Sequence record: PP400780
Strand: one strand, 5' to 3'
DNA: 64,000 nucleotides
DNA from: Escherichia phage FL18
Part shown: in pieces, positions 13,891-37,783 of the stretch
Layout of the letters: each line of letters begins with the position of its first letter
Numbering within the stretch: position 1 is the stretch's first letter
Made by a program: the position numbers and the translations under genes
Notes under the pieces: generated by a model
What the model was told of the DNA's origin: nothing
Databases searched by the model: none
The model's input: the letters and a program-made list of their open reading frames with translations, nothing else

Positions 13891-13925
13891 GTTTACATAA
13901 GGATGATGGTGTGTTACTATCATCC
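13891..13925 (+). promoter_or_regulatory. PeSL: early promoter (GTTTACA ... TACTAT) inside inverted repeat ggatgat/atcatcc
   Basis: seen in sequence; recurring element. Confidence 0.55.
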
Positions 13926-13954
13926 TATCAAATAAACAACCTCAAGGAAATAAA

Positions 13955-14266
13955 ATGAAAACCTATCAAGAATTCATCGCGGAAGCTACTAAAGCAGATA
14001 AAAATTTTGTTATTAACACTAACGGCCCGTTAGATGATGAATACGCTAATGCTATTATTAAGTCAATTTCTAATCAAGGCGTTGAAGTATCAAATTTCGA
14101 ATATAAGAAAAATGATACTTATATGGTAATTAGTATCAAAAAAGGTTCAAAGGCTAAAATTAAATCTGCATTTGGTGTTATGCGAGTCGACCAAATCGAT
14201 AACCACGATTTTTCACAAACAGGGGTTAAACGCCAAAATACCATTTCTTCTAAAGGCATAAAATAA
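13955..14266 (+). CDS. internal protein with capsid targeting sequence (ipI position)
   Basis: N-terminus MKTYQEFIAEA; 103 aa. Confidence 0.65.
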   Translation: MKTYQEFIAEATKADKNFVINTNGPLDDEYANAIIKSISNQGVEVSNFEYKKNDTYMVISIKKGSKAKIKSAFGVMRVDQIDNHDFSQTGVKRQNTISSKGIK

Positions 14267-14300
14267 TTTACAACACGATAGGACTATGTTATAGTAGTCC
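14266..14300 (+). promoter_or_regulatory. PeSL (core ggactatgttatagtagtcc)
   Basis: -35-like ATTTACA plus stem-loop with -10-like TATAGT. Confidence 0.5.
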
Positions 14301-14327
14301 TATCAAAACAACCAAATGGAACCTAAA

Positions 14328-14591
14328 ATGAAAACTTTCAACGAATTCATCTCAGAATCATCTGGTGTGAAAATTAACAAAGCGGTCAATCAGGTTATTG
14401 CTGATATTCTTAATTTGTATAACATTGACTTAACTCCGCATATCACGCTTGGTAACAAACGAAACTTTTTCGTATTTGACACATCCGAACTTGATGAAAA
14501 TCAGTTCAATAATATTCAACGTTTTGCTAATGATAAAGGTCTTCGACACGAGCCTGGTGGCTATAAAAAATACGCAATATATTTGAAATAA
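14328..14591 (+). CDS. internal-protein-like, CTS MKTFNEFISE
   Basis: start taken at second ATG to match CTS; 87 aa. Confidence 0.55.
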   Translation: MKTFNEFISESSGVKINKAVNQVIADILNLYNIDLTPHITLGNKRNFFVFDTSELDENQFNNIQRFANDKGLRHEPGGYKKYAIYLK

Positions 14592-14593
14592 AG

Positions 14594-14630
14594 GTATACA
14601 AGCCTATAGGGATATGTTATAGTAGTCCTA
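14594..14630 (+). promoter_or_regulatory. PeSL variant
   Basis: gtataca ... gggatatgttatagtagtccta. Confidence 0.45.
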
Positions 14631-14660
14631 TCAAAACAAATGAGTAAATGGAGAAATAAA

Positions 14661-14846
14661 ATGAAACGCGCTGAACTGATTCGTAATGTTGCTGTAGTAA
14701 TTGCTTCAATGGCTTTTAGTTTTTCGATGTTTGTAGGATTCATTTGCGGACTACTGACAACAACTGAAAATTCTATCTCATTGGTAGTAGCATTTCTAAT
14801 CGGTTTAATCGCTATCGTTATGGATAAAATTGCAAAAGGCGAGTAA
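14661..14846 (+). CDS. small membrane protein
   Basis: 61 aa, hydrophobic core; SD TGGAG upstream. Confidence 0.45.
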   Translation: MKRAELIRNVAVVIASMAFSFSMFVGFICGLLTTTENSISLVVAFLIGLIAIVMDKIAKGE

Positions 14847-14847
14847 A

Positions 14848-15210
14848 ATGAAATATCACGTATATGCGGATTTTGAAGCAAATCCTTCTAAAGACCCCGA
14901 TTGTCGTTTGATACGCAGACCATTTGATTCAGCAGCTCAAGCCTGGGCCTGGATTAAAACTTGTACTCCTTCTTACACTTTCTTTGAAGTGGTAGACGAT
15001 AACGGTGTTCTGCATCCAGAACCTACAGAAACTATTAATTTCCTTCTGTTTGCTGGTTATGACTGTTATCCTCTTGGTGGTATTGACGACCTTGTTGCTA
15101 CAGGAAAAACTTTTGAAGCTCTTCGCGAAATTTATAAAAACGCGGAAGAAAATTTTGACTGGTATCATATTGTTGATGCTCATACCTTTGAAATGGTGGA
15201 ACATTCATGA
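14848..15210 (+). CDS. hypothetical protein
   Basis: 120 aa ORF, start adjusted to ATG 14848 just after upstream stop. Confidence 0.45.
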   Translation: MKYHVYADFEANPSKDPDCRLIRRPFDSAAQAWAWIKTCTPSYTFFEVVDDNGVLHPEPTETINFLLFAGYDCYPLGGIDDLVATGKTFEALREIYKNAEENFDWYHIVDAHTFEMVEHS

Positions 15211-15491
15211 TTCTTTATGCTAAAGTATCGTCCATTGAGAACGGATATGAAAGCGACCAACGTGCAGCTAAAGCACTAGTTAATGACTACGGTATTCTGA
15301 CTATCTTTGAGGTTGAAAAGGTTTATATCGACCGTTCATCTTCGCAAGTTAAATTACTCTGTGAAGACGATAAATTTAACACAGTTAACTTTGATTTCTT
15401 TATTGAAACAGAAAAAGGCCCTCTTGAATATGACATTTTCAAGAATCCTTTAGGACTTGATTGCATTCAGAACACATACACAATATGGTGA
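15207..15491 (+). CDS. hypothetical protein
   Basis: 94 aa ORF, ATGA overlap with upstream gene. Confidence 0.45.
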   Translation: MILYAKVSSIENGYESDQRAAKALVNDYGILTIFEVEKVYIDRSSSQVKLLCEDDKFNTVNFDFFIETEKGPLEYDIFKNPLGLDCIQNTYTIW

Positions 15492-15522
15492 GAAATCGTT
15501 TTGCCAACTGTTAAAATGATTG

Positions 15523-15550
15523 ATTTGCTTTAAGAATTATGTGTTATTAT
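15523..15550 (+). promoter_or_regulatory. candidate middle promoter (MotA box TGCTTTA + TATTAT) upstream of tRNAs
   Basis: tgcttta at 15526-15532, 12 nt spacer, tattat. Confidence 0.4.
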
Positions 15551-15611
15551 TAATTCATACCCTCTATTACCAAAGGTACTCTAAAGTGCCTTTCATAATA
15601 GAAAGTTATTT

Positions 15612-15685
15612 AGGCCCTGTAGCTCAATGGTTAGCAGCAGTCCCCTCATAAGGGAAAGGTTACCAGTTCGAATCTGGTCTGGGTC
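15612..15685 (+). tRNA. tRNA with anticodon CAT (Ile2/Met-type), no encoded CCA
   Basis: manual cloverleaf: anticodon loop ctCATaa, T-arm accag-ttcgaat-ctggt; acceptor stem has one mismatch and one G-U, D-stem weak. Confidence 0.5.
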
Positions 15686-15691
15686 ATATAT

Positions 15692-15768
15692 TCGAGGCAT
15701 AGCTCAATTGTATAGAGCAACGGATTTCTAATCCGTAGGTTGAAGGTTAGAATCCTTCTGCCTCGACC
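15692..15768 (+). tRNA. tRNA-Arg (anticodon TCT), CCA encoded
   Basis: manual cloverleaf with perfect 7-bp acceptor stem cgaggca/tgcctcg, D gctc/gagc, anticodon loop ttTCTaa, T-arm gaagg-ttagaat-ccttc, CCA. Confidence 0.85.
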
Positions 15769-15769
15769 A

Positions 15770-16084
15770 AATAAGAAGCCGGGTCGCTACCGGTAAGTCG
15801 TCGGACTGATGTTCCCTGAGTAAGGACTGGTCTTAATAAATCTTTACGATTTGTTAATATCCCCTTACATCACAGCAGAAACGGCGCACCGAATTATCGA
15901 TTCGAGGAAATATCTTTGCCGTAAGCCGAGTAGCGTTTTTGACGGAACGTTCGGATATGGTCGAGATATGGCCTTTTAAAAATATTGAGTAGCGTCAACT
16001 GCTTAATAACCGGGTTCGAATCCCGGCGTTTCGTACAAACACTTGCCTTAGCAGGTGGGACCCCGACAAGGTTGCCGCAAGGCT
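15770..16084 (+). ncRNA. possible small stable RNA(s) co-transcribed with tRNAs
   Basis: no ORF; contains T-arm-like ccggg-ttcgaat-cccgg at 16009-16025; ends at intrinsic terminator; T4 is reported to carry small stable RNAs in its tRNA cluster. Confidence 0.3.
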
Positions 16085-16114
16085 TAGCCCCTTCCGAAAG
16101 GTTGGGGCTTTTTT
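16085..16114 (+). terminator. intrinsic terminator (agcccc..ggggct + T7), cassette copy 1
   Basis: hairpin with GAAA loop followed by T-run. Confidence 0.6.
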
Positions 16115-16115
16115 T

Positions 16116-16123
16116 GTATAAAT
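16116..16123 (+). promoter_or_regulatory. late promoter TATAAATA immediately after terminator
   Basis: exact TATAAATA. Confidence 0.45.
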
Positions 16124-16159
16124 ATAGTAAACAATAAACCTACTTTCTAAGGACCATCA

Positions 16160-16786: not shown

Positions 16787-16791
16787 AGAAT

Positions 16792-16807
16792 GGGGACTTC
16801 GGTCCCC
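16792..16807 (+). terminator. UUCG-tetraloop hairpin after ORF
   Basis: ggggac-ttcg-gtcccc, no T-run. Confidence 0.35.
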
Positions 16808-16838
16808 ATTAGGGGGTCTATAACTTTCTGAAAAAGTT

Positions 16839-16880
16839 GTTTACTTCTTCCCTAGATGTGTTACTATAGACCTATAAAAA
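16839..16880 (+). promoter_or_regulatory. PeSL (GTTTAC ... TGTTACTATAGACC)
   Basis: seen in sequence. Confidence 0.5.
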
Positions 16881-16895
16881 CATGAGGAAAATATT

Positions 16896-17201
16896 ATGAG
16901 TCTTTATACTGAACTGAATAAAAAATCTGAAGAATCTGCTGAAACTATTTTTAAAAACGTGCAAAAGCGTATTTTAGAAAAGATGTATAACGCTGCAGCT
17001 AAAGGTGAAAAATCTTGCCAGTTTCCGATTAGGTGTTCTTCAGATTTATGCGCAAATACTATTGAATGGCTGGAAAGTGAAGGTCTTACGGTAAAGAAAA
17101 ACCCGGCGACTTCTATTGACGGTGAATCATATATTAGTATTTCTTGGGATAAACCACGTATGAATGAAGGATACTACAAGTTGTTAAGTTGGAAAAATTA
17201 A
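16896..17201 (+). CDS. hypothetical protein
   Basis: 101 aa ORF after PeSL with SD GAGGA. Confidence 0.5.
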   Translation: MSLYTELNKKSEESAETIFKNVQKRILEKMYNAAAKGEKSCQFPIRCSSDLCANTIEWLESEGLTVKKNPATSIDGESYISISWDKPRMNEGYYKLLSWKN

Positions 17202-17210
17202 AAATAATGA

Positions 17211-17240
17211 TGTACAAGCACCAAGGATGGTGATACTATA
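17211..17240 (+). promoter_or_regulatory. PeSL-like early promoter (TGTACA ... TACTAT)
   Basis: 17 nt spacing. Confidence 0.4.
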
Positions 17241-17269
17241 GACTTATCAACTACAGAGGAGTAAACAAA

Positions 17270-17434
17270 ATGACTACTTTAATTATTTGGTTCGATGAAA
17301 ATGAAGAAACATACTGTGTGAATATTGGTGAAAGTCCAATGCCTGAATTTGAATCCTCGGATAAAAACTCTGTTGTATCTTGGGCTGAAGGTTATAAAGC
17401 CGCTAAAGGTGACGTTGAAATAATTTACATCTAA
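17270..17434 (+). CDS. small hypothetical protein (54 aa, below ORF-track cutoff)
   Basis: ATG after SD GAGGAG; translated by eye. Confidence 0.35.
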   Translation: MTTLIIWFDENEETYCVNIGESPMPEFESSDKNSVVSWAEGYKAAKGDVEIIYI

Positions 17435-17453
17435 GTACGTTTATGTTATAGTA
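17424..17453 (+). promoter_or_regulatory. PeSL-like early promoter
   Basis: atttaca ... tatgttatagta. Confidence 0.4.
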
Positions 17454-17481
17454 ATCACATCAAATCAAGAGGAGAAACAAA

Positions 17482-17709
17482 ATGGCTACAGTTAGTATTG
17501 ATGTCGTTGATTATGAATACACTGAAGAAGTTATTCGCAACCGTCACCCTGAAGTTCGTATCGATTCAGTCCAAGATTCCAAGTTTTGGACAACTGAGCT
17601 TAATCTGAGCGGTCCTTATGAAGCTGTTAAGAAGTTCATGGTTGAAGAATACTGCGAAGGCATGCACCCCGAAGACACCAAGTTTTATGTCAATTTGATT
17701 AAAAAATAA
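17482..17709 (+). CDS. hypothetical protein
   Basis: 75 aa ORF, SD AGAGGAG. Confidence 0.5.
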   Translation: MATVSIDVVDYEYTEEVIRNRHPEVRIDSVQDSKFWTTELNLSGPYEAVKKFMVEEYCEGMHPEDTKFYVNLIKK

Positions 17710-17779
17710 TTTACAAACTCTTGAGAGCAGAGTATAATGCTCTCGTTGGATAATAAACCACCAATTGAAAGGTAATAAT

Positions 17780-18373
17780 ATGAACACACTGAAGAAACTT
17801 GTTGAATTCATCCGCACTAAACTGGGTACTGCTATGGCTAAAAATCTGACTGTCGAAGAACAGTATAACGCAGCTGCAGATAAGTTGATCACCCAAATCA
17901 AAGAACTAAAAACGGCTTCTGTTAAATCTATTAATGAAGAAAAACGTATTCGCGAACTTGTTAATGAAAAGAACAAGCAAGCCGCTTCTAAGGAACGTGA
18001 AATTCGTAAGCTCCTGGCTGAAGGACAAGATGTTACTATGCATGCTAAGCTTGGTCTTCTGTATCGTCGAACCGCCGAACAACTTAATACAAAAGCTGAC
18101 GGGTATGCCGCTATGCGAATTGAAATTGCTCGTAAGGTGGTTGAACTTGATGATGCTCGTCAGAATCTGGCAATCAAACTCGAATACATTCGTGAAACTC
18201 GAGCAGCCAATGCCCTTGGTATCTCTACGGCCGATGATGTAATTGAAATCGCTGCACTGACTAAGGTTGATATCGAAGACACTCTGACTCGTGTTGAAAC
18301 GTTCAATGGCACTCCAGCTGGTGTTGAAACCACTTCTGCTGATGTACAAGAATATATTAACTCTTTGAAATAA
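17780..18373 (+). CDS. hypothetical coiled-coil protein
   Basis: 197 aa from ATG 17780; charged/helical composition. Confidence 0.5.
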
Positions 18374-18382
18374 AATAATACG

Positions 18383-20522: not shown

Positions 20523-20560
20523 GTTTACAACAAGATAGGGCTATGTTATAGTAGTCCTAT
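20523..20560 (+). promoter_or_regulatory. PeSL
   Basis: GTTTACA + stem-loop tagggctatgttatagtagtcctat. Confidence 0.55.
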
Positions 20561-20580
20561 CAAATTAAATGGAGTCCACA

Positions 20581-20848: not shown

Positions 20849-21805
20849 ATGATGTTAGTTATTGGTTCTCGTGCACTTCACTATCACGGTCTTATTGATT
20901 CTAGCGCTATCAAAAATAGTGATTGGGACTTTATTGCGGACCAAGGTTCTTGGAATGCATTCAAAAATCAAATGATGGGTGTATATGTCCACCAAGATAA
21001 CCATGATGTCCAAGTTTTCAAATGCTTCCATAATGGACGCGAAACTCATTTTGAAGCATATATTGTTCCGGCAATCACTAATGTCCGTGAATTAGTCGGT
21101 GAACTCACTCCTGAAGATTTCACGTCTTCTTATGACCTTTTAAAATACGCCAAGAAAAATTTGACTAAAGACCGTTTGAACGGGTTTTACTGGGCAACTC
21201 CTGAGATATGTCTTGCAATTAAGATGTCTCATCGTTTCAAGAAAAATAATCCATTCTTTTTAAAGACTATGAACCATATTCAGTATCTTCGTGGTAAAGG
21301 TGTTACACTGAACGATGAACTTACTGAAATTATGCTGAAACGCCAGAAAGAAACCTTGAACTATGCTCACCCGGTTCTTGACACTTCTAAAAGTGCGTTC
21401 TTTAAAGATGACATCTATACATATGACCATGATACTATTCATGAAGCCATTGCACTAACAGACCGTCCAGCGTATACATTTTATATGAAAGACGGTTCTG
21501 AAGTCATGACCTCACGAGAGAAGTTCGAATCGTTACCAGAAATGGTCAAATTGGCCGGTGTATATGAAGAATCATGTGTACTAGCATTAGAACGTTCTCA
21601 GATTCCTAATGACTTTAAAATTAACCCTGAAGCCAGTTTCATGATGGCATTGGAAAAGGTCTGTACAAGCATCACCTCCGGTTGGTTCCGTGAATACGCC
21701 TGGGAAAGCTACAGCAAAGTAGTAAGTATGTACCAAAGTTTAGGACATGACGATTACGTCAAACGTTTCAAACAAAATTTCCATATGGTAAAACCTTTCA
21801 AATAA
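20849..21805 (+). CDS. hypothetical protein (318 aa)
   Basis: long ORF with SD GAGGA; no motif recognised. Confidence 0.5.
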   Translation: MMLVIGSRALHYHGLIDSSAIKNSDWDFIADQGSWNAFKNQMMGVYVHQDNHDVQVFKCFHNGRETHFEAYIVPAITNVRELVGELTPEDFTSSYDLLKYAKKNLTKDRLNGFYWATPEICLAIKMSHRFKKNNPFFLKTMNHIQYLRGKGVTLNDELTEIMLKRQKETLNYAHPVLDTSKSAFFKDDIYTYDHDTIHEAIALTDRPAYTFYMKDGSEVMTSREKFESLPEMVKLAGVYEESCVLALERSQIPNDFKINPEASFMMALEKVCTSITSGWFREYAWESYSKVVSMYQSLGHDDYVKRFKQNFHMVKPFK

Positions 21806-21817
21806 TTTCGCAAAACT

Positions 21818-21854
21818 GTTTACACAATTATAGGACTATGTTATAGTAGTCCTA
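21818..21854 (+). promoter_or_regulatory. PeSL
   Basis: GTTTACA + taggactatgttatagtagtccta. Confidence 0.55.
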
Positions 21855-21875
21855 TTAAAACATGAGGAGAATATT

Positions 21876-22181
21876 ATGAAATTAGGCGAAACCAATCGAA
21901 TCGGTCTTTTTACAATATTTGCATCACCTTTTTACGTAGCTCTTTCTGTTGCAGTATTACAAAAGGCTTACAGTATGGATGGTGTTCCTGGTTTTGTATT
22001 CTTATCACCGTTTTTATTATTCGTCGGAGCTTTGTTATTATATGCCACGACTAGTTTCGACCATAACGTCTGGGTTAATTATAAATGTAAATTGTCTGAA
22101 GAAGAACACGCAGAAGCTCGTAAAAAAGCTATTGAATCTACCAATCTAGAAAATTTCATTAAAGAATGCCGAGGAAAATAA
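21876..22181 (+). CDS. membrane protein ending NFIKECRGK
   Basis: 101 aa, two hydrophobic helices. Confidence 0.5.
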   Translation: MKLGETNRIGLFTIFASPFYVALSVAVLQKAYSMDGVPGFVFLSPFLLFVGALLLYATTSFDHNVWVNYKCKLSEEEHAEARKKAIESTNLENFIKECRGK

Positions 22182-24029: not shown

Positions 24030-24063
24030 GTAATAAATACCTCCTATAAACGTGGGAGGTATT

Positions 24064-24552
24064 ATGAATATATTTGAAATGCTTCGTAATGACGAAGGTC
24101 TTAGACTGACTTTATACAAAGACACTGAAGGCTTTTGGACGATTGGCATAGGCCATTTGGTAACAAAGAACCCGTCTTTAGCCATAGCTAAAGCTGAACT
24201 TGACAGAATTATCGGACGTAAATGCAACGGTACAATTACCCTTGATGAGGCTGAAAAGCTATTTAATGAAGACGTTGATAAAGCCGTTCGCGGAATCTTG
24301 GGTAATGCTAAACTTAAACCGGTATATGATTCTTTAGATGCGGTTCGTCGATGTGCATTGGTCAATATGGTCTTCCAAATGGGTGTAGCAGGCGTCGCCG
24401 GTTTTACTAATTCTCTTCGTATGCTTCAACAGAAACGTTGGGACGAAGCGGCAGTAAATCTAGCCCAATCTAAATGGTATCGTCAGACACCTAATCGCGC
24501 GAAACGCGTAATCTCAACATTTAAAACAGGAACTTGGAAAGCGTATATATGA
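24064..24552 (+). CDS. e: endolysin (T4 lysozyme family)
   Basis: [15 protein letters not shown]...TIGIGHL...; length about 162 aa. Confidence 0.9.
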
Positions 24553-24830
24553 AAACATACAATGAATTTTTATCAGAATCTATTCTTAACGAAGCTACTG
24601 ACACATTTGCAACTAAGCTAGGTGCAGCTTTGGTTGAAGCCGAAAGTCTATTAGCACGTATTTCTGAACTTGCTAGTAAGATAGATACTCGCAAATTTGA
24701 ACGTACCAGCGATATCGCTAAGCTTGAAGCCTTGTTACGTATGTGCGATAAACCGGAAGAAATCGCTAAGAACGGCTCGCTGATGAAACAACGTCTTGAA
24801 AAATATATTTCAGGCGCTTCAGAAAAATAG
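24549..24830 (+). CDS. internal-protein-like, [13 protein letters not shown]
   Basis: ATGA overlap with e; 93 aa. Confidence 0.6.
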
Positions 24831-24832
24831 TT

Positions 24833-24884
24833 GTTTACTTCCTCCAAGGGTTTTGATACTATACATTCATCAACTACTTGGAGG
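24833..24884 (+). promoter_or_regulatory. PeSL (inverted repeat cctccaag/cttggagg around GATACTATA)
   Basis: seen in sequence. Confidence 0.5.
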
Positions 24885-24889
24885 AAATT

Positions 24890-24993
24890 ATGACCCGTCC
24901 GAAGCGTCCATTGCGATAAATCAAGCACGCTTAGATGAAAAAATTGCTCAACGTCCGACTTGGTACAAATACTTTGGTAAATCAATTTACTAA
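24890..24993 (+). pseudogene. denV: denV (endonuclease V) remnant: start codon plus frameshifted C-terminal about 31 codons
   Basis: ATG ACC CGT (MTR) then out-of-frame ...[30 protein letters not shown], matching recalled T4 EndoV C-terminus; about 100 internal codons absent. Confidence 0.6.
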
Positions 24994-24999: not shown

Positions 25000-25260
25000 A
25001 TGAAAATGTATCAAGAATTTATCGTTGAAGCAGATGCCAAAGGTCCTAAATTTAAAGTTAAAGCTTTCATTGGTGATGCGGAAGACTTTGGCTCATTAAA
25101 ACGTAATGGGTATTCTTTCTTAGGTGGCAATGGTAAAGAAATCAACACCTATGCAAAACGTAGTGAAATTGCTTATGTTGTAGCAAGTCCTAAAGTAGAT
25201 GTTGACGATATTGGATACGATTTTAACAACTTCGGAATTATTTCTGGCGGTAAAGCTTAA
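25000..25260 (+). CDS. internal-protein-like, CTS MKMYQEFIVE
   Basis: 86 aa. Confidence 0.55.
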   Translation: MKMYQEFIVEADAKGPKFKVKAFIGDAEDFGSLKRNGYSFLGGNGKEINTYAKRSEIAYVVASPKVDVDDIGYDFNNFGIISGGKA

Positions 25261-25263
25261 ATT

Positions 25264-25295
25264 GTTTACGCTTAAGTATTAATATGGTATATAAT
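25264..25295 (+). promoter_or_regulatory. early-type promoter (GTTTAC ... TATAAT)
   Basis: spacing about 20 nt, weaker match. Confidence 0.3.
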
Positions 25296-25325
25296 TACTC
25301 TATCAAAACAAACAAGGAAACAAAA

Positions 25326-25628: not shown

Positions 25629-25630
25629 CA

Positions 25631-25676
25631 GTTTACTTCTCCTAGAATTGTGATAGTATATTCATAATTCTAGGAG
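25631..25676 (+). promoter_or_regulatory. PeSL (11-bp inverted repeat ctcctagaatt/aattctaggag)
   Basis: GTTTAC then stem-loop containing GATAGTATA. Confidence 0.55.
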
Positions 25677-25739
25677 GGGTAAATACAGAAATGGACAATT
25701 CATGTGCCACGGAATGGCCCAACATAAAAGAGAAACTAA

Positions 25740-27433: not shown

Positions 27434-27648
27434 TGGCTTCTACTATTACTGGGTTATTGGACTTCCAAGAAAAGGTCAACAAAATTTGTAGTGAATACTT
27501 AAAGTATCTTGAAGAAGACCTTGAAGATTGTAAGGAAGAAGGCGAAGAAGACTATGCTGATCAGCGTCGACGCCAAATCGAAGAGATGAGGCGTTTCGCC
27601 AATATAGTATCTAAAGAATCTTGGGCTTTAACTCCATTTTATCAATAA
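27433..27648 (+). CDS. hypothetical acidic protein
   Basis: 71 aa. Confidence 0.4.
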   Translation: MASTITGLLDFQEKVNKICSEYLKYLEEDLEDCKEEGEEDYADQRRRQIEEMRRFANIVSKESWALTPFYQ

Positions 27649-27652
27649 AGTA

Positions 27653-27701
27653 GTTTACTTCTCCTCTAGTTGTGTTACTATAGACCTGTCAACTAGAGGA
27701 G
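27653..27701 (+). promoter_or_regulatory. PeSL (perfect 12-bp inverted repeat ctcctctagttg/caactagaggag)
   Basis: GTTTAC + TGTTACTATAG in loop; 3' arm supplies SD GAGGAG. Confidence 0.6.
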
Positions 27702-27709
27702 AAATCAAA

Positions 27710-28168
27710 ATGACTATCAATTCAGACGTTTTTATCCGCCGTAATAAACTCCGTCGAATCTTTGAAACGGAGTTCCGCAAAATAAATGCCGGTATAAAAG
27801 ATGCTGCAAAGTCTCTTGGACTACCAGGCTTTCATATCAAGTATTCTCAACATCTCTTAGATCGTGCCATCCAGAGAGAAATAGATGAGAATTACGTTTT
27901 TGAATTATTTCATAAAGTAAAAAATCATGTTAAAGAAGTTGCAGAATTTTTATCAATGCCGGCACGTCCAGATGTTGATGAAGATTTTGTCGAAGGTGTC
28001 GAATATCGCCCAGGCCGTTTAGAAATAACTGATGGAAATCTTTGGTTAGGACTTACAGTTTGTCGCGAAAATCCAGCATTCAAAATGAAGACTCTTCAAT
28101 GCAGAATGGCTATTATTAACAGTAAACGACTACCAGGAAAAGCTTCTAAAGCAGTGATTAAAATCTAG
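27710..28168 (+). CDS. hypothetical protein, possibly RegB endoribonuclease (position and size)
   Basis: 152 aa; location in tk-e interval; identity not verified. Confidence 0.35.
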   Translation: MTINSDVFIRRNKLRRIFETEFRKINAGIKDAAKSLGLPGFHIKYSQHLLDRAIQREIDENYVFELFHKVKNHVKEVAEFLSMPARPDVDEDFVEGVEYRPGRLEITDGNLWLGLTVCRENPAFKMKTLQCRMAIINSKRLPGKASKAVIKI

Positions 28169-30851: not shown

Positions 30852-30880
30852 AGCCCCTTCCGAAAGGTTGGGGCTTTTTT
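30852..30880 (+). terminator. intrinsic terminator, cassette copy 2
   Basis: agccccttccgaaaggttggggct + T-run. Confidence 0.6.
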
Positions 30881-30881
30881 G

Positions 30882-30889
30882 TATAAATA
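30882..30889 (+). promoter_or_regulatory. late promoter TATAAATA after terminator
   Basis: exact match. Confidence 0.45.
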
Positions 30890-30913: not shown

Positions 30914-31471
30914 ATGAAATTTTTAAAATATGTAAGTTGGGTTGTTCTTGTTCCTATAGATTGGATCGCAGCGATTTTAGCAATTATTCTAGCACCATTT
31001 GTAGTTCCATTCCATAGTGAAAAAACCGGTAAACTACCTTATGGCTTTGACTGGATGATGACTTACGATAATCCTATCGATGGTGACCGCGGCCATGTTG
31101 AACGTTGGTCTAAAATACGTAAAATTCCTGTTATAGGTAAATATGCTCAACGCGTAGCTTGGCTATGGCGCAACAAAGCATATAATTTTTCTTATCATGT
31201 TTTAGGTCGCGAAGCTTCATCAGAATGGCACTATAAAGGCAACGCCGAAACTAAATCTGGATCTCCTGATCCGGCACATCATGGATATCTTTTAGTTTGG
31301 AACGAGTCTGCATGGGGATTATTCGCTGCTATACCTTATCTTAAGGTTGGTGGTATTACATTTTATCTGCGTGTTTACTGTGGTTGGAAACTTAAGAGTC
31401 TTTTGAGTCGTCCTATTCCACGCGCAATGCTTTCATTCCATATCAACCCTTTACGATATTACAAAAACTAA
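30914..31471 (+). CDS. membrane protein
   Basis: 185 aa, N-terminal TM helix. Confidence 0.5.
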   Translation: MKFLKYVSWVVLVPIDWIAAILAIILAPFVVPFHSEKTGKLPYGFDWMMTYDNPIDGDRGHVERWSKIRKIPVIGKYAQRVAWLWRNKAYNFSYHVLGREASSEWHYKGNAETKSGSPDPAHHGYLLVWNESAWGLFAAIPYLKVGGITFYLRVYCGWKLKSLLSRPIPRAMLSFHINPLRYYKN

Positions 31472-31475: not shown

Positions 31476-31504
31476 AGCCCCTTCCGAAAGGTTGGGGCTT
31501 TTTT
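31476..31504 (+). terminator. intrinsic terminator, cassette copy 3
   Basis: same hairpin sequence + T-run. Confidence 0.6.
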
Positions 31505-31514
31505 GCATTTAGCA

Positions 31515-31565
31515 GTTTACTTCTCCTCAGGTTGTGTTATAGTAGACCTTACTTACTAGAGGAGA
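31515..31565 (+). promoter_or_regulatory. PeSL
   Basis: GTTTAC + tctcctc ... gaggaga inverted repeat. Confidence 0.5.
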
Positions 31566-31570
31566 ACGTT

Positions 31571-31750
31571 ATGTCACGTAAAGAAAAAATTTCTAAGTTA
31601 ATGTTTTTTATTGAAGAGTACGCTAACGCTGTATCCGATTGGGAAAATGCCCACGGGTGTGAAGACGGTGATATCGATATCAATAAGGCAATGAAAAAGA
31701 TGGCTGATACGCACACTGAATTGCAAATGTATGTTAACGAGATTATGTGA
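31571..31750 (+). CDS. hypothetical protein
   Basis: 59 aa. Confidence 0.4.
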   Translation: MSRKEKISKLMFFIEEYANAVSDWENAHGCEDGDIDINKAMKKMADTHTELQMYVNEIM

Positions 31751-31964: not shown

Positions 31965-32003
31965 TTTACATCTTGGTAGGACTACTATAACATAGTCCTA
32001 CCA
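31964..32003 (+). promoter_or_regulatory. PeSL with inverted core (ggtaggactactataacatagtcctacc)
   Basis: same stem as other copies but loop sequence is the reverse complement. Confidence 0.45.
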
Positions 32004-32021
32004 AAACAAATGGAGAACAAA

Positions 32022-33323: not shown

Positions 33324-34309
33324 TGAAAACGATTGTTAAGTCTTACTTTGGTAGCCACCTTTATGGAACGTCTACTCCTGAATCTGACGTCGATTTTAAA
33401 GAAATTTATGTCCCTCATGCTCGTGATATCTTGACCGGTAACGTTAAAGAACATATGAGCAAGAACACGAATAACACATCTTCTAAGAACACAAAAGACG
33501 ATGTGGATCATGAGTTGTATAGTCTCAAATATTTCTTTAAACTAGCTGCGGATGGTGAAACCGTCGCATTAGATATGCTTCACACTCCACCAAGTCTAGT
33601 AGTTAAATCTGATTTGCCTGATGTATGGAAGTATATTCAAGATAACAGGTCTCGTTTCTATACTACTAACATGAAATCTTATTTAGGGTATGTCCGTAAG
33701 CAAGCTTCTAAATACGGTGTCAAGGGTTCTCGACTGGCTGTTCTTCGTCAAGCCCTTAAACGTTCTAATGAATGGGGACAATACTTTGATAATGGTGCAG
33801 TAATTCGTTTATCACATATGAAGAATGTTCTGCCTGTAGGTGAATTTGCTTCGTGGGTTGAAACCGAAAACGAGAAAACAGGTAAGCAAACATTCTATAA
33901 TCTGTTAGACCGTAAATTCCAAGATACGTTAACCAATAAAGAGTTCAATGCCATCCTGGTTAAACTGGAAGAGAACTATGGCGAACGTGCTCGTAAGGCA
34001 GAAGCCAACGAAGGTATTGACTGGAAAGCATTGAGTCATGCATGTCGTGGTGGACTTCAATTATTGGAAATTTACAAAACCGGCGACCTGGTTTACCCAC
34101 TTCAGGATGCTCCATTTATTCTCGATGTTAAGCTTGGTAAACATACGTTTAAAACTGTACAAGAATTCCTAGAAGATATCGTTGACCAAGTTGAACATGC
34201 GTCAGAACAAGCCGCTAAGAACGGTATGCAACAAAAAGTAGATATGAGTTTCTGGGATGACTTCCTTGAACAAGTCTACTTAGAAAACCACAATTCGTAC
34301 TATAAATGA
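33320..34309 (+). CDS. nucleotidyltransferase-fold protein (Pol-beta superfamily)
   Basis: motif GSHLYGTSTPESDVDF (GS-x10-DxD) and downstream acidic DHE; 329 aa. Confidence 0.5.
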   Translation: MMKTIVKSYFGSHLYGTSTPESDVDFKEIYVPHARDILTGNVKEHMSKNTNNTSSKNTKDDVDHELYSLKYFFKLAADGETVALDMLHTPPSLVVKSDLPDVWKYIQDNRSRFYTTNMKSYLGYVRKQASKYGVKGSRLAVLRQALKRSNEWGQYFDNGAVIRLSHMKNVLPVGEFASWVETENEKTGKQTFYNLLDRKFQDTLTNKEFNAILVKLEENYGERARKAEANEGIDWKALSHACRGGLQLLEIYKTGDLVYPLQDAPFILDVKLGKHTFKTVQEFLEDIVDQVEHASEQAAKNGMQQKVDMSFWDDFLEQVYLENHNSYYK

Positions 34310-34312
34310 TAA

Positions 34313-34329
34313 GGGCCTTCGGGCCCTTT
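34313..34329 (+). terminator. UUCG hairpin (gggcc-ttcg-ggccc + TTT)
   Basis: seen in sequence. Confidence 0.45.
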
Positions 34330-34357
34330 AGGGGGTCAAAATATTTTTAAAAAGTAG

Positions 34358-34390
34358 TGTACACGCTTTTAGGATATGTTATTATAGACC
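34358..34390 (+). promoter_or_regulatory. PeSL-like early promoter
   Basis: TGTACA ... TATGTTATTATAGACC. Confidence 0.45.
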
Positions 34391-34415
34391 TATCAAAACA
34401 AGAGGAGAAAACAAA

Positions 34416-34634
34416 ATGAAAACCAAAATGTTAGAAATGATTCGTGAAGCAGGTGATAAAGGTCTTATGGTTAACACTCGTGATGCAGACCAACGTCAAG
34501 CATTCGGTGAACTGAAAGCTAAAGGTCTAGTTAAAGCATCCTTAGGAATTGGTAATGCATTACGAGTCACCTTAACCCCAGCCGGTAAAGCAGTGTTCTT
34601 TCAACCTCTTACCAAAAAATCTCGTCGCAAATAA
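34416..34634 (+). CDS. small basic protein
   Basis: 72 aa. Confidence 0.45.
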   Translation: MKTKMLEMIREAGDKGLMVNTRDADQRQAFGELKAKGLVKASLGIGNALRVTLTPAGKAVFFQPLTKKSRRK

Positions 34635-34636
34635 TT

Positions 34637-34673
34637 GTTTACTTTTGCTTTAAACATGTTATTATAGACCTAT
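34637..34673 (+). promoter_or_regulatory. PeSL-like early promoter
   Basis: GTTTAC + TGCTTTA + CATGTTATTATAGACC. Confidence 0.45.
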
Positions 34674-34703
34674 CGAAACGAAATGAGTAAATTGGAGAAT
34701 AAA

Positions 34704-35684
34704 ATGTTCAACGTTCAAATCAAAAAAGGTATCTATCGTAATAACGAAATCTCTGGTTCTTATGTTGCCACAAAGACCTGGTTCCCGGCAAAGCTTAATC
34801 CTGAATGTTCCCACTTAGGTGATGGTAAAATTTTCGTTATGATTGATGGTTCTGAACGTGGAGTATGGGTCTTCAAATCAGACATCATAATGGAAGGAGT
34901 TGAGACATCGCCAGTTGCAGTTGTTGAAAGCACTGAAGATATGAAAACTCGTATCAACAAACGCTTTAAAGTAATGAACATGATGACGAATGGCATTATC
35001 GATGGCAAAATTCGTTCACTCATTATTTCAGGTGCAGCTGGTATTGGTAAGACGTATTCTCTGGATAAAGCACTTAATAATGCTAATGATAACGGTTTCA
35101 TCAAATACAAAAGCATTAATGGTAAAATCTCTGGTATTGGCCTTTACGAACAACTTTGGCCCAACCGTGATGCAGACAGCGTTCTCTTAATCGACGACGT
35201 TGACGTATTCTCAGATATGGACATCTTGAACCTTCTTAAAGCAGCATTAGATACCGGAGATAAACGCAAAGTTTGTTGGAGCACTGCGTCATCTTATCTC
35301 GACGATAAGGGTATTGATAAAGAATTTGAGTTTGAAGGTACTATCGTTTTCATTACAAACGTTGATATCGATAAAGAGTTAGAACGCGGTTCTAAACTTG
35401 CTCCACACCTTCAAGCTTTAGTATCTCGTTCAGTGTATCTCGACCTTGGAGTACACTCTAATGAAGAGATTATGGTTCGAGTTGAAGATGTAATATTATC
35501 TACTGACATGATGCAGAAACGTGGTCTGACGGATGCAGAAACGTATAAAGCATTGTCCTGGATGAAGGCTAACGTATCTCGTCTTCGCAATGTATCATTA
35601 CGTACGGCTCTTTATGTAGCAGATTTTATTTCAACTGATAAAGATGGTTGGGAAGAAATCTCGGAAGTTACTTTACTGAAATAA
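34704..35684 (+). CDS. AAA+/P-loop ATPase
   Basis: Walker A GAAGIGKT, Walker B LLIDDVD; 326 aa. Confidence 0.55.
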   Translation: MFNVQIKKGIYRNNEISGSYVATKTWFPAKLNPECSHLGDGKIFVMIDGSERGVWVFKSDIIMEGVETSPVAVVESTEDMKTRINKRFKVMNMMTNGIIDGKIRSLIISGAAGIGKTYSLDKALNNANDNGFIKYKSINGKISGIGLYEQLWPNRDADSVLLIDDVDVFSDMDILNLLKAALDTGDKRKVCWSTASSYLDDKGIDKEFEFEGTIVFITNVDIDKELERGSKLAPHLQALVSRSVYLDLGVHSNEEIMVRVEDVILSTDMMQKRGLTDAETYKALSWMKANVSRLRNVSLRTALYVADFISTDKDGWEEISEVTLLK

Positions 35685-35822
35685 GCTTATAGGAAGTTCT
35701 GAGGTAACAAAAGCCATAAAGATGAATAATCATATGGCTTACCTCAAAGAAGGACACCAGGAACCTACTGAGGGCATAGAAATATTTAAAAATAATGATG
35801 TACAAATCAAAGAGGATATGTT

Positions 35823-36110
35823 ATGGATTTTATGCAAAAAATTAAAGCCGCAGTCGAACTCTATGCTCATCGTATGGTTAGTTCTACAATGCAATATAGC
35901 GAGGAGGTTCGCCAGGACTCTTCCTTGAAAGGAAAAACTAAAGCCTTAATTACCTTAGATCGTTTGCAAAAGAATGCTATAGAGATGCTCCAGTACGACA
36001 AGGGTGTATATAAGAAAGAGCAGGAAGAGAAACTTAAATCTGAAAAATTACAAAAAATCCCGAAGTCTGTTTGGTTCAGTGGAAAAAATACCGAAAAAAG
36101 TTTCTTTTAG
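35823..36110 (+). CDS. hypothetical protein
   Basis: 95 aa; preferred over overlapping ORF 35722..35928. Confidence 0.4.
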   Translation: MDFMQKIKAAVELYAHRMVSSTMQYSEEVRQDSSLKGKTKALITLDRLQKNAIEMLQYDKGVYKKEQEEKLKSEKLQKIPKSVWFSGKNTEKSFF

Positions 36111-36112
36111 TT

Positions 36113-36146
36113 GTTTACAAGGTCTATGGTTATGTTATTATAGACC
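36113..36146 (+). promoter_or_regulatory. PeSL (ggtctat ... atagacc)
   Basis: GTTTAC + stem-loop with TATGTTATTATAG. Confidence 0.5.
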
Positions 36147-36168
36147 TATCAACTACTGGAGGTAAAAC

Positions 36169-36696
36169 ATGAACGCTAAAGATATTTTCAACCTGGTAAA
36201 TTATAACGACGGTAAATTTAAATCTGAAGCACAAAGTAAGTTCTTTAATGACATTGCTTATGGTAATGAGATTACCGTGGACGGAGGTCAGATTTTCAAA
36301 TCTCGCTGGAATTGGATTGTTATCATAGATTCAGTTGGAATTGTTGAAGTCTACAAAAACACTAACAAAAAACGTACATTATTCTGGTCTCGTGAAACTA
36401 ACGAGCAGTACAAAAAGGATAAAGCATCTCGTTTATCCAAAGTAACCCAGGAAGATATCGAGTTTATCAAGAAAGATATCGAGATGTACGAAAATTTAAT
36501 TGCTGAAGACCAGGCAGTACTCGATAAGTTTGATGAAATTAAAGCTTCTCGTGAAATCCCTGACTTCATGAAAGAAACAGTAAACGAACGATACGCTCTC
36601 ACTTCAGAACGTATTGCAAACTATACAAAACAGAAAGCAGAACGTATTAGTACTCTTCGGAAATTTGAAGAACGTTTAAAGACGGTTCACGCATAA
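36169..36696 (+). CDS. hypothetical protein
   Basis: 175 aa. Confidence 0.5.
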   Translation: MNAKDIFNLVNYNDGKFKSEAQSKFFNDIAYGNEITVDGGQIFKSRWNWIVIIDSVGIVEVYKNTNKKRTLFWSRETNEQYKKDKASRLSKVTQEDIEFIKKDIEMYENLIAEDQAVLDKFDEIKASREIPDFMKETVNERYALTSERIANYTKQKAERISTLRKFEERLKTVHA

Positions 36697-36698
36697 AC

Positions 36699-36723
36699 GC
36701 TTTACCCAAGGACGGGTTATAAT
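36699..36723 (+). promoter_or_regulatory. candidate middle promoter (GCTTTA + 13 nt + TATAAT)
   Basis: seen in sequence. Confidence 0.35.
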
Positions 36724-36758
36724 GGTTTTGAGTTCCAATTCAATCTGAGGAAATAGTT

Positions 36759-37754
36759 ATGAGCATTACATCTTATGCGGTAAAACATGAAATTAACGGT
36801 TTATGTGCTTCACAGATTAAAGTGTGGTTTAAAGACCATAATGATCGCAGAGCACTTAATTATGAACAAATTGCTATCCAAGTTCATCAATTACTGGTTA
36901 GTAAATTTGATTTTCATATGCCGTCTGAAATCTATACTAATCTACCGCGAGCGCTTATTAAAGCGTGTAAAGGTTATGGAAAATCAATGGCTGATGGAAT
37001 CTTCAGCGCGCTGAATAAACTTAACGTTCTGTCGATGATTAACTCTAACAATATCCTGCGTAATTTAGGACGTACTGATTTGTTCGGTCGTGAACAGGGT
37101 AAAATGCCTTTGAAATGGATTGTTGCTCATCTTAACGAGAACCAAACACGTTTTCTGGCTGTATCAGCACGTTTACAAATGGGCCTAGATCGTCAGATGA
37201 ACTTTAAAACTCATCCACGTTATTCAGGTTCAACAGACTTTTATAAATGTGAGCTTCAAAAGGTCGGTGGCAAAACTGTCTTAGTAGTTCGTGTAACTTT
37301 TGAAGGACGACGTCAAGGATATTTTAACCTAATTGGCTCTGGTCTTAAACATTGCGGATTTATCGACGAAGTTGATATCAAGCGAGACGGCATTGGATAT
37401 CGTATTGGATATGTTTGTACTCTTAAAGAAGAGATTTTAGGCCCGATCCCAGGACTAAAAGACGTTAGATATAAAGACGAGCTCGTTGAAGAAATAAAAG
37501 AAGTTGAATATGATATCAACCAAGAAGATGCTCTTAAAGACCTTATTGATGAACTAAACCAAGACGTTATTCCGGTTCAGAAATTTGAATCAAAACATGC
37601 TGAGCAAATCAAATACTTTGAAGCTTTGATTAACGAACTTAATGTAACTATTCAACAGACTGACGATGAAATCTCACGATTAGCAGGCTTAAACGGTAAA
37701 AATAAAACAGAACGAGCTAATCTTATTCAAGTAGTAAAACTTCTTAAGGAATGA
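36759..37754 (+). CDS. hypothetical protein with C-terminal coiled coil
   Basis: 331 aa. Confidence 0.5.
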   Translation: MSITSYAVKHEINGLCASQIKVWFKDHNDRRALNYEQIAIQVHQLLVSKFDFHMPSEIYTNLPRALIKACKGYGKSMADGIFSALNKLNVLSMINSNNILRNLGRTDLFGREQGKMPLKWIVAHLNENQTRFLAVSARLQMGLDRQMNFKTHPRYSGSTDFYKCELQKVGGKTVLVVRVTFEGRRQGYFNLIGSGLKHCGFIDEVDIKRDGIGYRIGYVCTLKEEILGPIPGLKDVRYKDELVEEIKEVEYDINQEDALKDLIDELNQDVIPVQKFESKHAEQIKYFEALINELNVTIQQTDDEISRLAGLNGKNKTERANLIQVVKLLKE

Positions 37755-37783
37755 TGTACAACCAAGGATGGTTGGAGTATAAT
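37755..37783 (+). promoter_or_regulatory. early promoter (TGTACA 17 nt TATAAT)
   Basis: seen in sequence. Confidence 0.4.

Follow-up and report, generated by a model that had tools for sequence, protein, structure and literature searches.

The 64,000-nucleotide (nt) stretch of Escherichia phage FL18 analysed here (sequence record PP400780, one strand; hereafter the window) contains a series of short intergenic cassettes, in which a T4-type early promoter is followed by a leader, a Shine–Dalgarno sequence (SD) and an ATG, and in which the promoter spacer is often complementary to a segment located further downstream. We favour, with a probability of about 0.7, a reading in which these elements are early-transcription cassettes, the spacer hairpin forms in read-through RNA, one subclass of hairpins gates the access of ribosomes to the SD, and the genes attached to the cassettes are shuffled by homology-driven recombination. 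The repeats themselves, their statistics, covariation among relatives, the anatomy of recombination junctions and predicted folding carry this reading.

The window comes from a Mosigvirus (RB69/JM17-like), a T4-family coliphage. The 24.9-kb stretch with the cassettes is 96–99% identical to Mosigvirus RB69, JS09, p000v, AV118 and JM17 (JM17 being the closest), and corresponds to the RB69 region which leads from genes 1/57A/57B, through the tRNAs, e, denV, vs, regB and tk, to nrdC.x, all on the + strand of the window. The stretch between 57B and nrdC is the classical variable (hyperplastic) early region of T4-type genomes.

Early-promoter cassettes in the window

Promoters were searched with a matrix of two blocks (UP/−35, then TGn/−10/discriminator), separated by a spacer of 16–17 nt, at a cut-off of at least 14 bits. 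Twenty-one T4-type early promoters were detected on the + strand and 0 on the − strand, for approximately 0.1 expected by chance (0–1 matches in Markov shuffles, n = 10). The matrix was trained on cassette sites, and the independent part of this result lies in the strand exclusivity and in four extra sites (17709, 39953, 43709 and 44154) that had not been listed in an earlier inspection of the sequence (the original prediction). Repeat finding alone independently yields the cassette families (D1–D8). A generic σ70 consensus scan of the window was uninformative (77 sites versus 65.5 expected).

The original prediction had described about 20 copies of an early cassette and listed 18 sites. An element is indeed present at all 18 coordinates and 17 of them are among the 21 early promoters, but 50252 has to be taken off the list of early copies: its sequence, cGCTTTA-N12-TATAAT, is that of a MotA-box (middle-type) promoter, accompanied by a hairpin, and the early matrix rejects it. 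The early copies span 13.9–44.2 kb and are intergenic, with small early open reading frames (ORFs) downstream, which bears out both the position and the T4 early-promoter consensus proposed for them in the 57B–nrdC region.

From 5′ to 3′, the cassettes consist of an A-rich block, GTTTAC(A/T), a 16–17 nt spacer, TGT-TAnnnT, AGNCCTATC, an A-rich leader, GAGGAG or GGAG, and ATG. The promoter hexamers are TTTACA/T and, for the −10, TACTAT, TATTAT, TATAAT or TATAGT. The A-rich block is found upstream of the −35 in every copy, with the stop codon of the upstream ORF inside or adjoining it (e.g. ataaaataATTTACA at 14266), and GAGGA/GGAG stands 5–9 nt ahead of the ATG in 20 of the 22 cassettes. Both the architecture of an early promoter (UP, GTTTAC, TGn, −10) and orthology to T4 early promoters are thus found, and from this consensus and homology we infer that the cassettes are functional early promoters. 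A Pfam search of the cassette-flanked ORFs returned DUF families only, and an Rfam scan of the window at gathering cut-offs gave two tRNAs and nothing else.

The cassettes (with hairpin classes as defined in the next section) and an associated terminator are listed here by position:

13876–13957 (+): early cassette 13891 (position of the G of GTTTAC), after 57B; class I hairpin 13900–13926, 12 bp, loop 3, whose 3′ arm includes the −10 TACTAT; internal-protein (IP)-like ORF downstream
14251–14330 (+): early cassette 14266; class I hairpin 14277–14304, GATAGGACTAT/GTAGTCCTATC
14579–14664 (+): early cassette 14594; degenerate (vestigial) class I hairpin at about 14606–14631, 6+3 bp
16789–16898 (+): early cassette 16839; no internal hairpin; upstream GC-rich UUCG hairpin 16789–16810, then TTAGGGGGTC
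17195–17272 (+): early cassette 17210; small spacer hairpin CACCAaggaTGGTG at 17219–17232
17408–17484 (+): early cassette 17423; no hairpin; overlaps the 3′ end of the preceding ORF
17694–17782 (+): early cassette 17709; class I hairpin at about 17719–17750, −10 TATAAT in the loop
20508–20583 (+): early cassette 20523; class I hairpin 20534–20561
21803–21878 (+): early cassette 21818; class I hairpin 21830–21855
24818–24891 (+): early cassette 24833, before the denV remnant; class II hairpin at about 24839–24886, TTCCTCCAAG/CTTGGAGGAA; the 3′ arm is the SD
25616–25693 (+): early cassette 25631; 23-bp stem 25631–25684, its 5′ arm including the −35 and its 3′ arm GGAGG
27638–27712 (+): early cassette 27653, of regB; class II hairpin 27659–27703, TTCTCCTCTAGTTG/CAACTAGAGGAGAA; the 3′ arm is the SD
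30852–30884 (+): intrinsic terminator AGCCCCTTCCGAAAGGTTGGGGCTTTTTT, direct repeat of 31476–31508; third copy at 16086–16118
31476–31573 (+): terminator 31476–31508, then early cassette 31515, before a mobD.2a homologue; partial class II hairpin at about 31519–31569, TTCTCCTC/GAGGAGAA
31949–32024 (+): cassette 31964; 12-bp hairpin 31973–32004; 8-nt loop inverted with respect to all relatives, TGn/−10 ruined
34298–34418 (+): early cassette 34357; no internal hairpin; upstream GC-rich UUCG hairpin at about 34298–34315, then TTAGGGGGTC
34622–34708 (+): early cassette 34637; no hairpin
36098–36171 (+): early cassette 36113, before nrdC.8; class I hairpin 36120–36147, AGGTCTATGGT/ATTATAGACCT
37739–37814 (+): chimeric early cassette 37754; spacer hairpin AACCAaggaTGGTT at 37759–37774; marks the nrdC.5 deletion
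39938–40034 (+): early cassette 39953; no internal hairpin; GC-rich hairpins upstream
43694–43771 (+): early cassette 43709; spacer partly complementary to the SD region
44139–44247 (+): early cassette 44154; no hairpin
50240–50306 (+): MotA-box promoter; hairpin 50261–50285 (TGATGTGGTTA/TGACCACATCA) takes in part of the −10; small ORFs follow, then gene 47

Stem-loops inside the cassettes

Each cassette was folded from the −35 to the ATG and compared with dinucleotide shuffles, hairpins with a z of −2 or lower being considered as strong. Strong internal hairpins were obtained for 13891, 14266, 17709, 20523, 21818, 24833, 25631, 27653, 31964, 36113 and 50252, weak or partial ones for 14594, 31515 and 43709, and small hairpins within the spacer for 17210 and 37754; folding revealed no internal hairpin at 16839, 17423, 34357, 34637, 39953 and 44154. 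Cassettes 16839, 34357 and 39953 have GC-rich hairpins 25–50 nt upstream, and 31515 comes directly after a true terminator. A cognate inverted repeat thus lies inside 13 of the 22 cassettes, and 3–4 more have a GC-rich hairpin just upstream. Accordingly, the inverted repeat that had been attributed to each copy holds for approximately 60% of them, as an internal stem-loop, but not for about a third, which have none.

The promoter consensus alone does not account for these hairpins, because the arms of a given copy pair better with each other than with those of other copies: the duplex of native 5′ and 3′ arms averages −12.6 kcal/mol versus −8.2 for chimeric pairings, and none of 20000 permutations attained the native figure. 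The whole window contains 33 perfect stems 11 bp long or longer, eight of which fall within the promoter zone, i.e. 1.6% of the sequence (P = 4e-8); at a cut-off of 9 bp, stems occur in the window about as often as in shuffles.

In class I (13891, the 14266/14594/20523/21818/31964 family, 17709, 36113 and 50252), the 5′ arm lies in the spacer, the loop surrounds TGTTAT, and the 3′ arm starts inside the −10 or immediately behind it and stops between −1 and +5. In class II (24833, before the denV remnant; 25631; 27653, of regB; and 31515, before the mobD.2a homologue; with 43709 and 36113 as partial members), the 5′ arm, an anti-SD (CTTCTCCTC...), comes right after the −35, the −10 and the start region are in the loop, and the SD itself forms the 3′ arm. 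Class III is a 5–6 bp CCAAGGATGG hairpin within the spacer (17210 and 37754). The example originally given for a 3′ arm doubling as an SD, caactagaggag at 27690, was correctly identified, and this SD is the one of regB.

Within a copy the arms match, but from one copy to another they differ, and the window has six or more unrelated arm sequences. The register of the hairpin relative to the −10 also varies, the 3′ arm beginning at −12, −8, −6 or beyond +5, and loops range from 3 to 17 nt. Because register and loop length differ in this way, a single covariance model of all copies was judged inappropriate, and paired-arm permutation tests together with an anchored alignment of regB orthologues were used in its place. 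In every internal hairpin, the 5′ arm is located upstream of the predicted start site, and the hairpin would therefore be possible only in read-through RNA.

Strand asymmetry is consistent with RNA as the folding molecule. Indeed, sense-strand folds contain 20 G·U pairs versus 6 in antisense folds (P = 0.009), and the sense fold is the more stable one in 10 of 13 hairpins (Wilcoxon P = 0.03), the single clear exception to this bias being 31964, the inverted copy. This G·U bias, the free choice of arm sequences and the variable loops and registers point to a structure in sense RNA, and not to an operator or a cruciform. An operator for a dimeric DNA-binding protein, e.g. a factor shutting off early promoters, would suit the overlap of the repeats with the −10/start region, where a repressor would act, as well as the TAGGACTA/TAGTCCTA pair common to five copies (D1), and the mechanism of T4 early-promoter shut-off is unresolved in the literature (PMC3014915). 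However, such a protein would have to recognize unrelated arms (about 12 types at regB orthologues alone) at variable spacing and register, it is pairing that is conserved and not sequence, the strand bias in G·U pairs points elsewhere, and AGNCCTATC also occurs in copies without a 5′ arm and is therefore a promoter feature. We find this explanation scarcely credible.

An alternative with a precedent is that the stem-loops are terminators or attenuators of incoming RNA polymerase, as proposed for the promoter-early stem-loops (PeSLs) of T4-type phages, the cassette being then a terminator–promoter unit. Their location directly after the stop codon of the upstream gene fits, a PeSL stem-loop from RB49 cut the expression of a downstream lacZ as much as rrnB T1 did (PMC2839356), and GC-rich hairpins or a true terminator do closely precede 16839, 34357, 39953 and 31515. 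Yet no internal cassette hairpin was called by our terminator scan, and the stems are followed not by a U-run but by ATCAAAACAA, their tails reading ATCAAAAC. They are also AT-rich (−13 to −17 kcal/mol), whereas the genuine terminators of the region are separate elements, GC-rich with T-runs (16086, 30852 and 31476; repeat D14). Finally, the 3′ arm of class II is the SD and its covariation tracks the SD, which argues for translation, and the reporter drop observed with RB49 would be expected as well from SD masking or polarity. Termination is, in our opinion, an unlikely primary role, although one that deserves consideration.

Conservation and covariation in relatives

When the same matrix was applied to T4 (58.0–76.5 kb), nine promoters were found on the coding strand and none on the other. 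Class I hairpins are present there at P-ipI, P-trna.4, P-e.7 and P-ipIII, and class II hairpins at P-denV and P-regB. The T4 position orthologous to 13891 (P-ipI, 73939) has a hairpin with different arms, and in different phages class I hairpins with different arms are likewise seen at the same position after 57B: the arms of loci L022 and L023 and of the window family read GGTAGG/CCTACC, GGTAGG/CCTATC (a G·U intermediate) and GATAGG/CCTATC.

At regB, approximately 14 distinct versions of the upstream region occur among 59 IMG/VR loci. Both sides of the stem differ between versions in its variable part: TCTAGTTG/CAACTAGA, TCTTGACTG/CAGTTAAGA, TTTATG/CATAAA and TGTAAG/CTTACA, to which TTTTAGT/ACTAAAA, TGTAG/CTACA, ATTTG/CAAAT and TCTTG/CAAGA can be added. 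In an alignment of 14 distinct lineages including T4, anchored at CTCC and GGAG, 83% of the cells are paired, compared with 68% in shuffles and 43–50% when the partner is slid, and 11 of the 14 pairs display double (compensatory) changes. The covariation score reaches 0.41 versus 0.15 for shuffled alignments (0 of 500) and at most 0.09 for slid ones, and contiguous pairing beyond the CTCC:GGAG core averages 4.9 bp versus 1.7 in chimeras (0 of 20000). The hairpin is absent from the most distant regB relatives (40–43% RegB identity) and from a few others.

Cassette 31964 offers a view of shorter-term evolution. One stem pair is G-C in the window, JS09 and p000v, G·T in RB69 and JM17, and A-T in AV118, and the remaining single stem substitutions among relatives are wobble-compatible on the sense strand. 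Its loop (within 31973–32004), CTATAACA, is the exact reverse complement of TGTTATAG in RB69, JS09, p000v, AV118 and JM17, and the non-inverted form is found in all 91 full-length database matches (best 91.7% identity). On these sequences, the loop has been inverted between the arms of the inverted repeat, an event unique to FL18 among 91 database relatives, and one that destroys the TGn/−10 of the promoter.

Alternatively, the hairpins may have no function at all and be by-products of quasipalindrome-templated mutation or gene conversion in a recombination-prone phage, or of the common descent of the copies. In T4, imperfect palindromes are a classic target of templated correction, events of this kind do happen, as the loop inversion at 31964 demonstrates, and a third of the cassettes do without a hairpin, some being degenerate (14594). 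However, independent arms recur at one and the same functional position across numerous copies and genera, with stepwise G-C/G·U/A-U paths. DNA-templated correction gives Watson–Crick complements, and a strand-specific G·U bias would not be expected from it, nor does it account for 5′ arms that are all upstream of the start and class II 3′ arms placed exactly on the SD. Absence of function thus appears very improbable, and the hairpins look like selected RNA structures that would separate read-through from locally initiated transcripts.

A predicted translational gate

Under the favoured reading, each gap between genes (50–110 nt, starting at or overlapping the previous stop codon) would accommodate a very strong σ70 promoter, a short A-rich leader, an SD and an ATG. 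Because these gaps are filled by promoter, leader and SD, the spacer would be the sole room for complementarity to a downstream element; being the only sequence-free part of the cassette, it seems in most copies to have evolved complementary to a constrained downstream segment, i.e. the −10/start region in class I and the SD in class II. RNA initiated at the cassette's own promoter would lack the 5′ arm and keep an open leader, and read-through RNA, which has both arms, would fold. In class II (regB, denV, mobD.2a and 25631), this fold would bury the SD, so that translation would proceed only from own early-promoter transcripts, in the first minutes. In T4, transcription from early promoters continues into the genes that follow, and RNA that is not translated is liable to Rho-dependent polarity or decay (PMC2988021); silent read-through RNA would presumably be exposed to both Rho-dependent termination and decay, and neighbouring units would be insulated from each other. 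Candidate roles for class I in read-through RNA are a 3′-end/processing barrier for the upstream cistron or an attenuator. The former would recall intercistronic stabilizer hairpins, which sit directly after a cistron and could block 3′ exonucleases. Start sites, action at the RNA level, translational gate and link to Rho are all deduced here from sequence and predicted folds.

The predicted accessibility of the SD agrees with such a gate. Its unpaired probability in read-through versus own transcripts is 0.00 versus 0.73 at 25631, 0.00 versus 0.47 at regB and 0.00 versus 0.54 at 31515 in the window, and 0.00 versus 0.67 at denV and 0.00 versus 0.57 at regB in T4. The SD pairs with a segment upstream of the internal start at 24833, 25631, 27653, 31515, T4 denV and T4 regB, and compensatory changes in relatives were found at regB. 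The idea that the hairpin would sequester the ribosome-binding site (RBS) in read-through transcripts is therefore strongly supported for class II cassettes, by regB covariation and by modelled folding.

A late promoter inside an RBS-masking hairpin is an established arrangement for T4 e, soc, 49 and I-TevI (Uzan and Miller 2010, PMC3014915). As in class II, the 5′ arm lies there upstream of an internal start, so that the long RNA masks the SD/AUG and the short one is open. However, their internal promoter is a gp55-dependent late one, whereas it is a σ70 early promoter in the window; rather than postponing translation, the gate would thus confine it to the earliest minutes. The gene e structure is itself recognizable in the window: a 12-bp hairpin AATACCTCCTATAAACGTGGGAGGTATT (24036–24066; stem-loop 24036–24063) sits just before the lysozyme (e) start codon at 24064, with a late-promoter-like TATAAAC in its loop. 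Used as an accessibility control, it gave 0.00 in both transcripts with a guessed late start; this control failed and is not counted as evidence.

A broader proposal can be derived from these data, namely a ‘promoter-of-origin’ gate throughout the Tevenvirinae, T4 included, in which an anti-SD arm lodged in the spacer of a gene's own early promoter would allow RegB, DenV and some small early proteins to be made only from that promoter. We put this forward tentatively, at somewhat less than even odds.

Gene-content breakpoints and the origin of cassette shuffling

The cassettes had also been proposed as recombination hot spots. By comparison with RB69, JS09, p000v and AV118 over 13.5–45.8 kb, 55 distinct gene-content breakpoints were identified, 22 of which fall in cassette zones (−50 to +90 of the cassette) that represent 9.2% of the sequence, a fourfold enrichment (P = 9e-10). 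Several gene gains and losses have junctions inside cassettes, as anticipated, and some are textbook illustrations of the model of Arbiol. The nrdC.5 gene is missing from the window, and cassette 37754 is a chimera whose 5′ half, down to TATAAT, is the cassette upstream of nrdC.5 in RB69 and JS09 and whose 3′ half is the cassette upstream of nrdC.3, the crossover being inside 27 shared nt. At 21818, JS09 has an extra gene (JS09_048) flanked by two cassettes, homology ending at the −35. In loci L022 and L023, two IP genes are missing and a hybrid of cassettes 13891 and 14594 is present. The T4 P-denV cassette (L021, T4 65413) and the regB cassette of the L079-type lineage differ at 2 of 52 positions and precede different genes, which indicates that cassettes move between loci.

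The comparison with JM17 provides junctions of several kinds: a gene replacement with its left end in a terminator loop and its right end at the −35 of 16839 (−6 of −35), the insertion of a DUF7338 gene with a copy of a 33-bp terminator on either side, 298 nt inserted in JM17 a short distance ahead of cassette 34357, and a 710-nt indel in coding DNA. The DUF7338 gene (185 amino acids, 30914–31471) lies between terminators 30852 and 31476, and its locus contains one terminator copy and no gene in all five relatives examined. By sequence, the gene was gained or lost through a repeated terminator, so that a non-promoter repeat also serves as a module junction. Since repeated terminators serve equally well as junctions, recombination looks homology-driven rather than hairpin-driven, and the simplest reading is that any short repeated regulatory sequence links homologous recombination, with no hairpin required. 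The approximately 30–60 bp common to the copies would be enough homology for phage recombination to gain, lose or swap genes. Locus L041 is a broken chimera in which cognate arms were split by recombination inside the cassette, and such events may be the reason why a third of the copies have no good stem.

The stronger form of the PeSL hypothesis is a signal at the DNA level, the promoter hairpin or cruciform being a substrate for structure-specific recombination (by endonuclease VII or an unknown recombinase, for instance) that would move cassettes as mini-circles. Mini-circles were detected by inverse PCR in RB49 and phi1, with the speculation that the stem-loop is a protein target (Arbiol 2010, PMC2839356); besides the many junctions located in cassettes, the exact 8-nt loop inversion at 31964 implies that this inverted repeat took part in a DNA event. 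Nevertheless, breakpoints are unrelated to the presence of a hairpin, being as frequent in cassettes without one (5 of 7) as in those with one (10 of 14), crossovers map to shared −35, −10 or 27-nt blocks and not to hairpin bases, and recent junctions are also observed in repeated terminators and plain coding DNA. Moreover, the stems need G·T pairs, and a cruciform, symmetric in the duplex, does not produce a strand-specific bias. Loops of 3–17 nt on AT-rich stems of 10–12 bp also extrude poorly. A DNA-level signal accordingly seems to us quite unlikely.

Several points weigh against the favoured reading as a whole. First, about one-third of the cassettes have no hairpin, so that neither promoter function nor the cassette itself depends on one, and class I hairpins shift the predicted accessibility of the SD little, so that the gate does not explain the commonest class. 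Secondly, the G·U bias comes from 13 hairpins, several of them paralogous, and the comparison of sense and antisense stability is not significant on whole 70-nt regions (9 of 16, P = 0.19). The +1 positions are themselves derived from −10 spacing, approximately 7 nt after the −10, and anchoring at CTCC/GGAG partly fits the regB alignment to the structure, although the slide and shuffle controls argue against an artefact. The lacZ result for RB49 mentioned above belongs here too. Lastly, the association with breakpoints relies on five relatives only and on raw counts with no phylogenetic counting of events, and it is not significant when cassettes are set against the remaining intergenic regions 40 nt long or longer (breakpoints in 14 of 19 regions that have a promoter and in 7 of 14 that have none, P = 0.27). 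The hot-spot proposal thus survives in part: junctions do fall in cassettes and are enriched relative to the whole region, but neither relative to intergenic DNA nor in connection with hairpins.

Relation to known elements

PeSLs are composed of an AT-rich upstream part, a σ70-like promoter, a stem-loop between or over the −35 and −10, an SD and an ATG (Arbiol 2010, PMC2839356). The cassettes resemble them (PMC2839356; Comeau 2014, PMC4122927) in being intergenic, present in many copies in hyperplastic regions and crossed by indel junctions, in their AT-rich part with an upstream stop, in the T-even form TTTACW-N17-TAYWAT that fits most window copies, in a stem-loop, where one is present, between or over the −35 and −10 as in RB49 and phi1, and in an AGNA-loop-TCNT flavour (AGGA...TCCT in the window) followed by SD and ATG. 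The PeSLs of PST and T4, with a stem-loop just upstream (Comeau 2014), find their likeness in 16839, 34357, 39953 and 31515, and PmSL, the middle-promoter version of nt-1, has a counterpart in 50252. Unlike PeSLs, the window stems are AT-rich and not GGGG/CCCC, have no U-runs and are missing from about one-third of the copies, and the subclass with the SD as 3′ arm, its arms enclosing the −10 and start, lies outside the five positional subclasses described. The PeSL papers (Arbiol 2010, Comeau 2014) did not cover the RB69 group (Mosigvirus) and never discussed translation.

T4 early promoters are defined by UP/−35/TGn/−10 (Hinton 2010, PMC2988021), and 57 early promoters with a preference for C at −3 to −1 were predicted in RB69 (Nolan 2006, PMC1524935). 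The cassettes share with them UP, GTTTAC at −36 to −31, TGn, −10, a C-rich −3 to −1 and a position before early or novel ORFs, and orthologous positions are occupied at ipI, trna.4, ipIII, denV and regB. In contrast, the T4 and RB69 promoter papers (PMC2988021, PMC1524935) mention no inverted repeats; spacer complementarity and its covariation are added here. At the sequence level, the window elements fit the definitions of both PeSLs and T4 early promoters.

The cassettes are hence of the already published PeSL kind, which they extend to the RB69 group, and with the SD-masking subclass the logic known from e/soc/49/I-TevI reaches early promoters. Masking of the SD at such promoters receives no mention in the T4 reviews (PMC2988021, PMC3014915) or in the PeSL papers (PMC2839356, PMC4122927), and regB and denV are not among the cases listed in the review of RBS masking (PMC3014915), the gate in the window being predicted from sequence. 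The cassettes also resemble morons (discussed in Arbiol 2010), which are self-contained gene units with their own promoter, but the regulatory sequences of morons are not known to be used as recombination linkers.

Other features of the region

Four small ORFs (13955–14591 and 25000–25628) have in common an N-terminus, MKT(Y/F)(Q/N)EFI, and the corresponding DNA (families D9 and D10), and by sequence they look like IP genes with a common targeting/cleavage leader; their conserved 5′ coding stretch lengthens the homology of their cassettes. The tRNA locus (15613–15769) has two tRNA genes only (Met-CAT and Arg-TCT) versus eight plus rnaC and rnaD in T4, and several breakpoints with relatives cluster around it (15451–15770). 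The UUCG-tetraloop hairpins GGGGACTTCGGTCCCC and GGGCCTTCGGGCCC (16789–16825 and 34298–34330) form a small GC-rich repeated motif 25–50 nt upstream of cassettes 16839 and 34357, with no T-run after them on the + strand.

The denV gene (24886–24993) is a 34-codon remnant lacking approximately 300 bp between 12-nt microhomologies (ATGACyCGTCC...); it is intact in RB69, JS09, p000v and AV118, and the deletion is common to the window and JM17. In RB69 and JS09 (L001 14640–14825 and L018 14560–14715), vs.8 is preceded by some 150–200 noncoding nt, CCAACCTGTAATAAGGTCGAGC...GCGGTAATGGGT, which in the window (25629–25740) are mostly replaced by cassette 25631 with its 23-bp stem; the GGAGG of its 3′ arm is 14 nt from the next ATG, which opens a short ORF out of frame with vs.8. 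An 18-bp, G·U-rich stem with a 14-nt loop lies inside the regB coding sequence (27941–27990) and may be due to chance.

Significance for T4-type phages

The nrdC.5 deletion, the JS09_048 insertion and the loss of IP genes constitute base-resolved examples of cassette-mediated loss and gain. The PeSL model is also tempered, as homology of any repeated regulatory signal, terminators included, seems sufficient. For the annotation of T4-like genomes, matrix and hairpin pattern in combination flag early transcription units and probable module boundaries. The covarying anti-SD hairpin of regB and denV, present in T4 as well, is the one point that a T4 specialist might find new, and it is easy to test; the predicted gate bears on the confinement of early expression to the first minutes of infection. 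If the promoter-of-origin gate exists, read-through RNA from upstream early or middle promoters would be silent and, via polarity, short-lived, and promoter shut-off would be turned directly into a shut-off of protein synthesis. Such a gate would then add a component not yet described to the early-to-middle switch, which is itself poorly understood, and would explain why promoter spacers covary with downstream elements.

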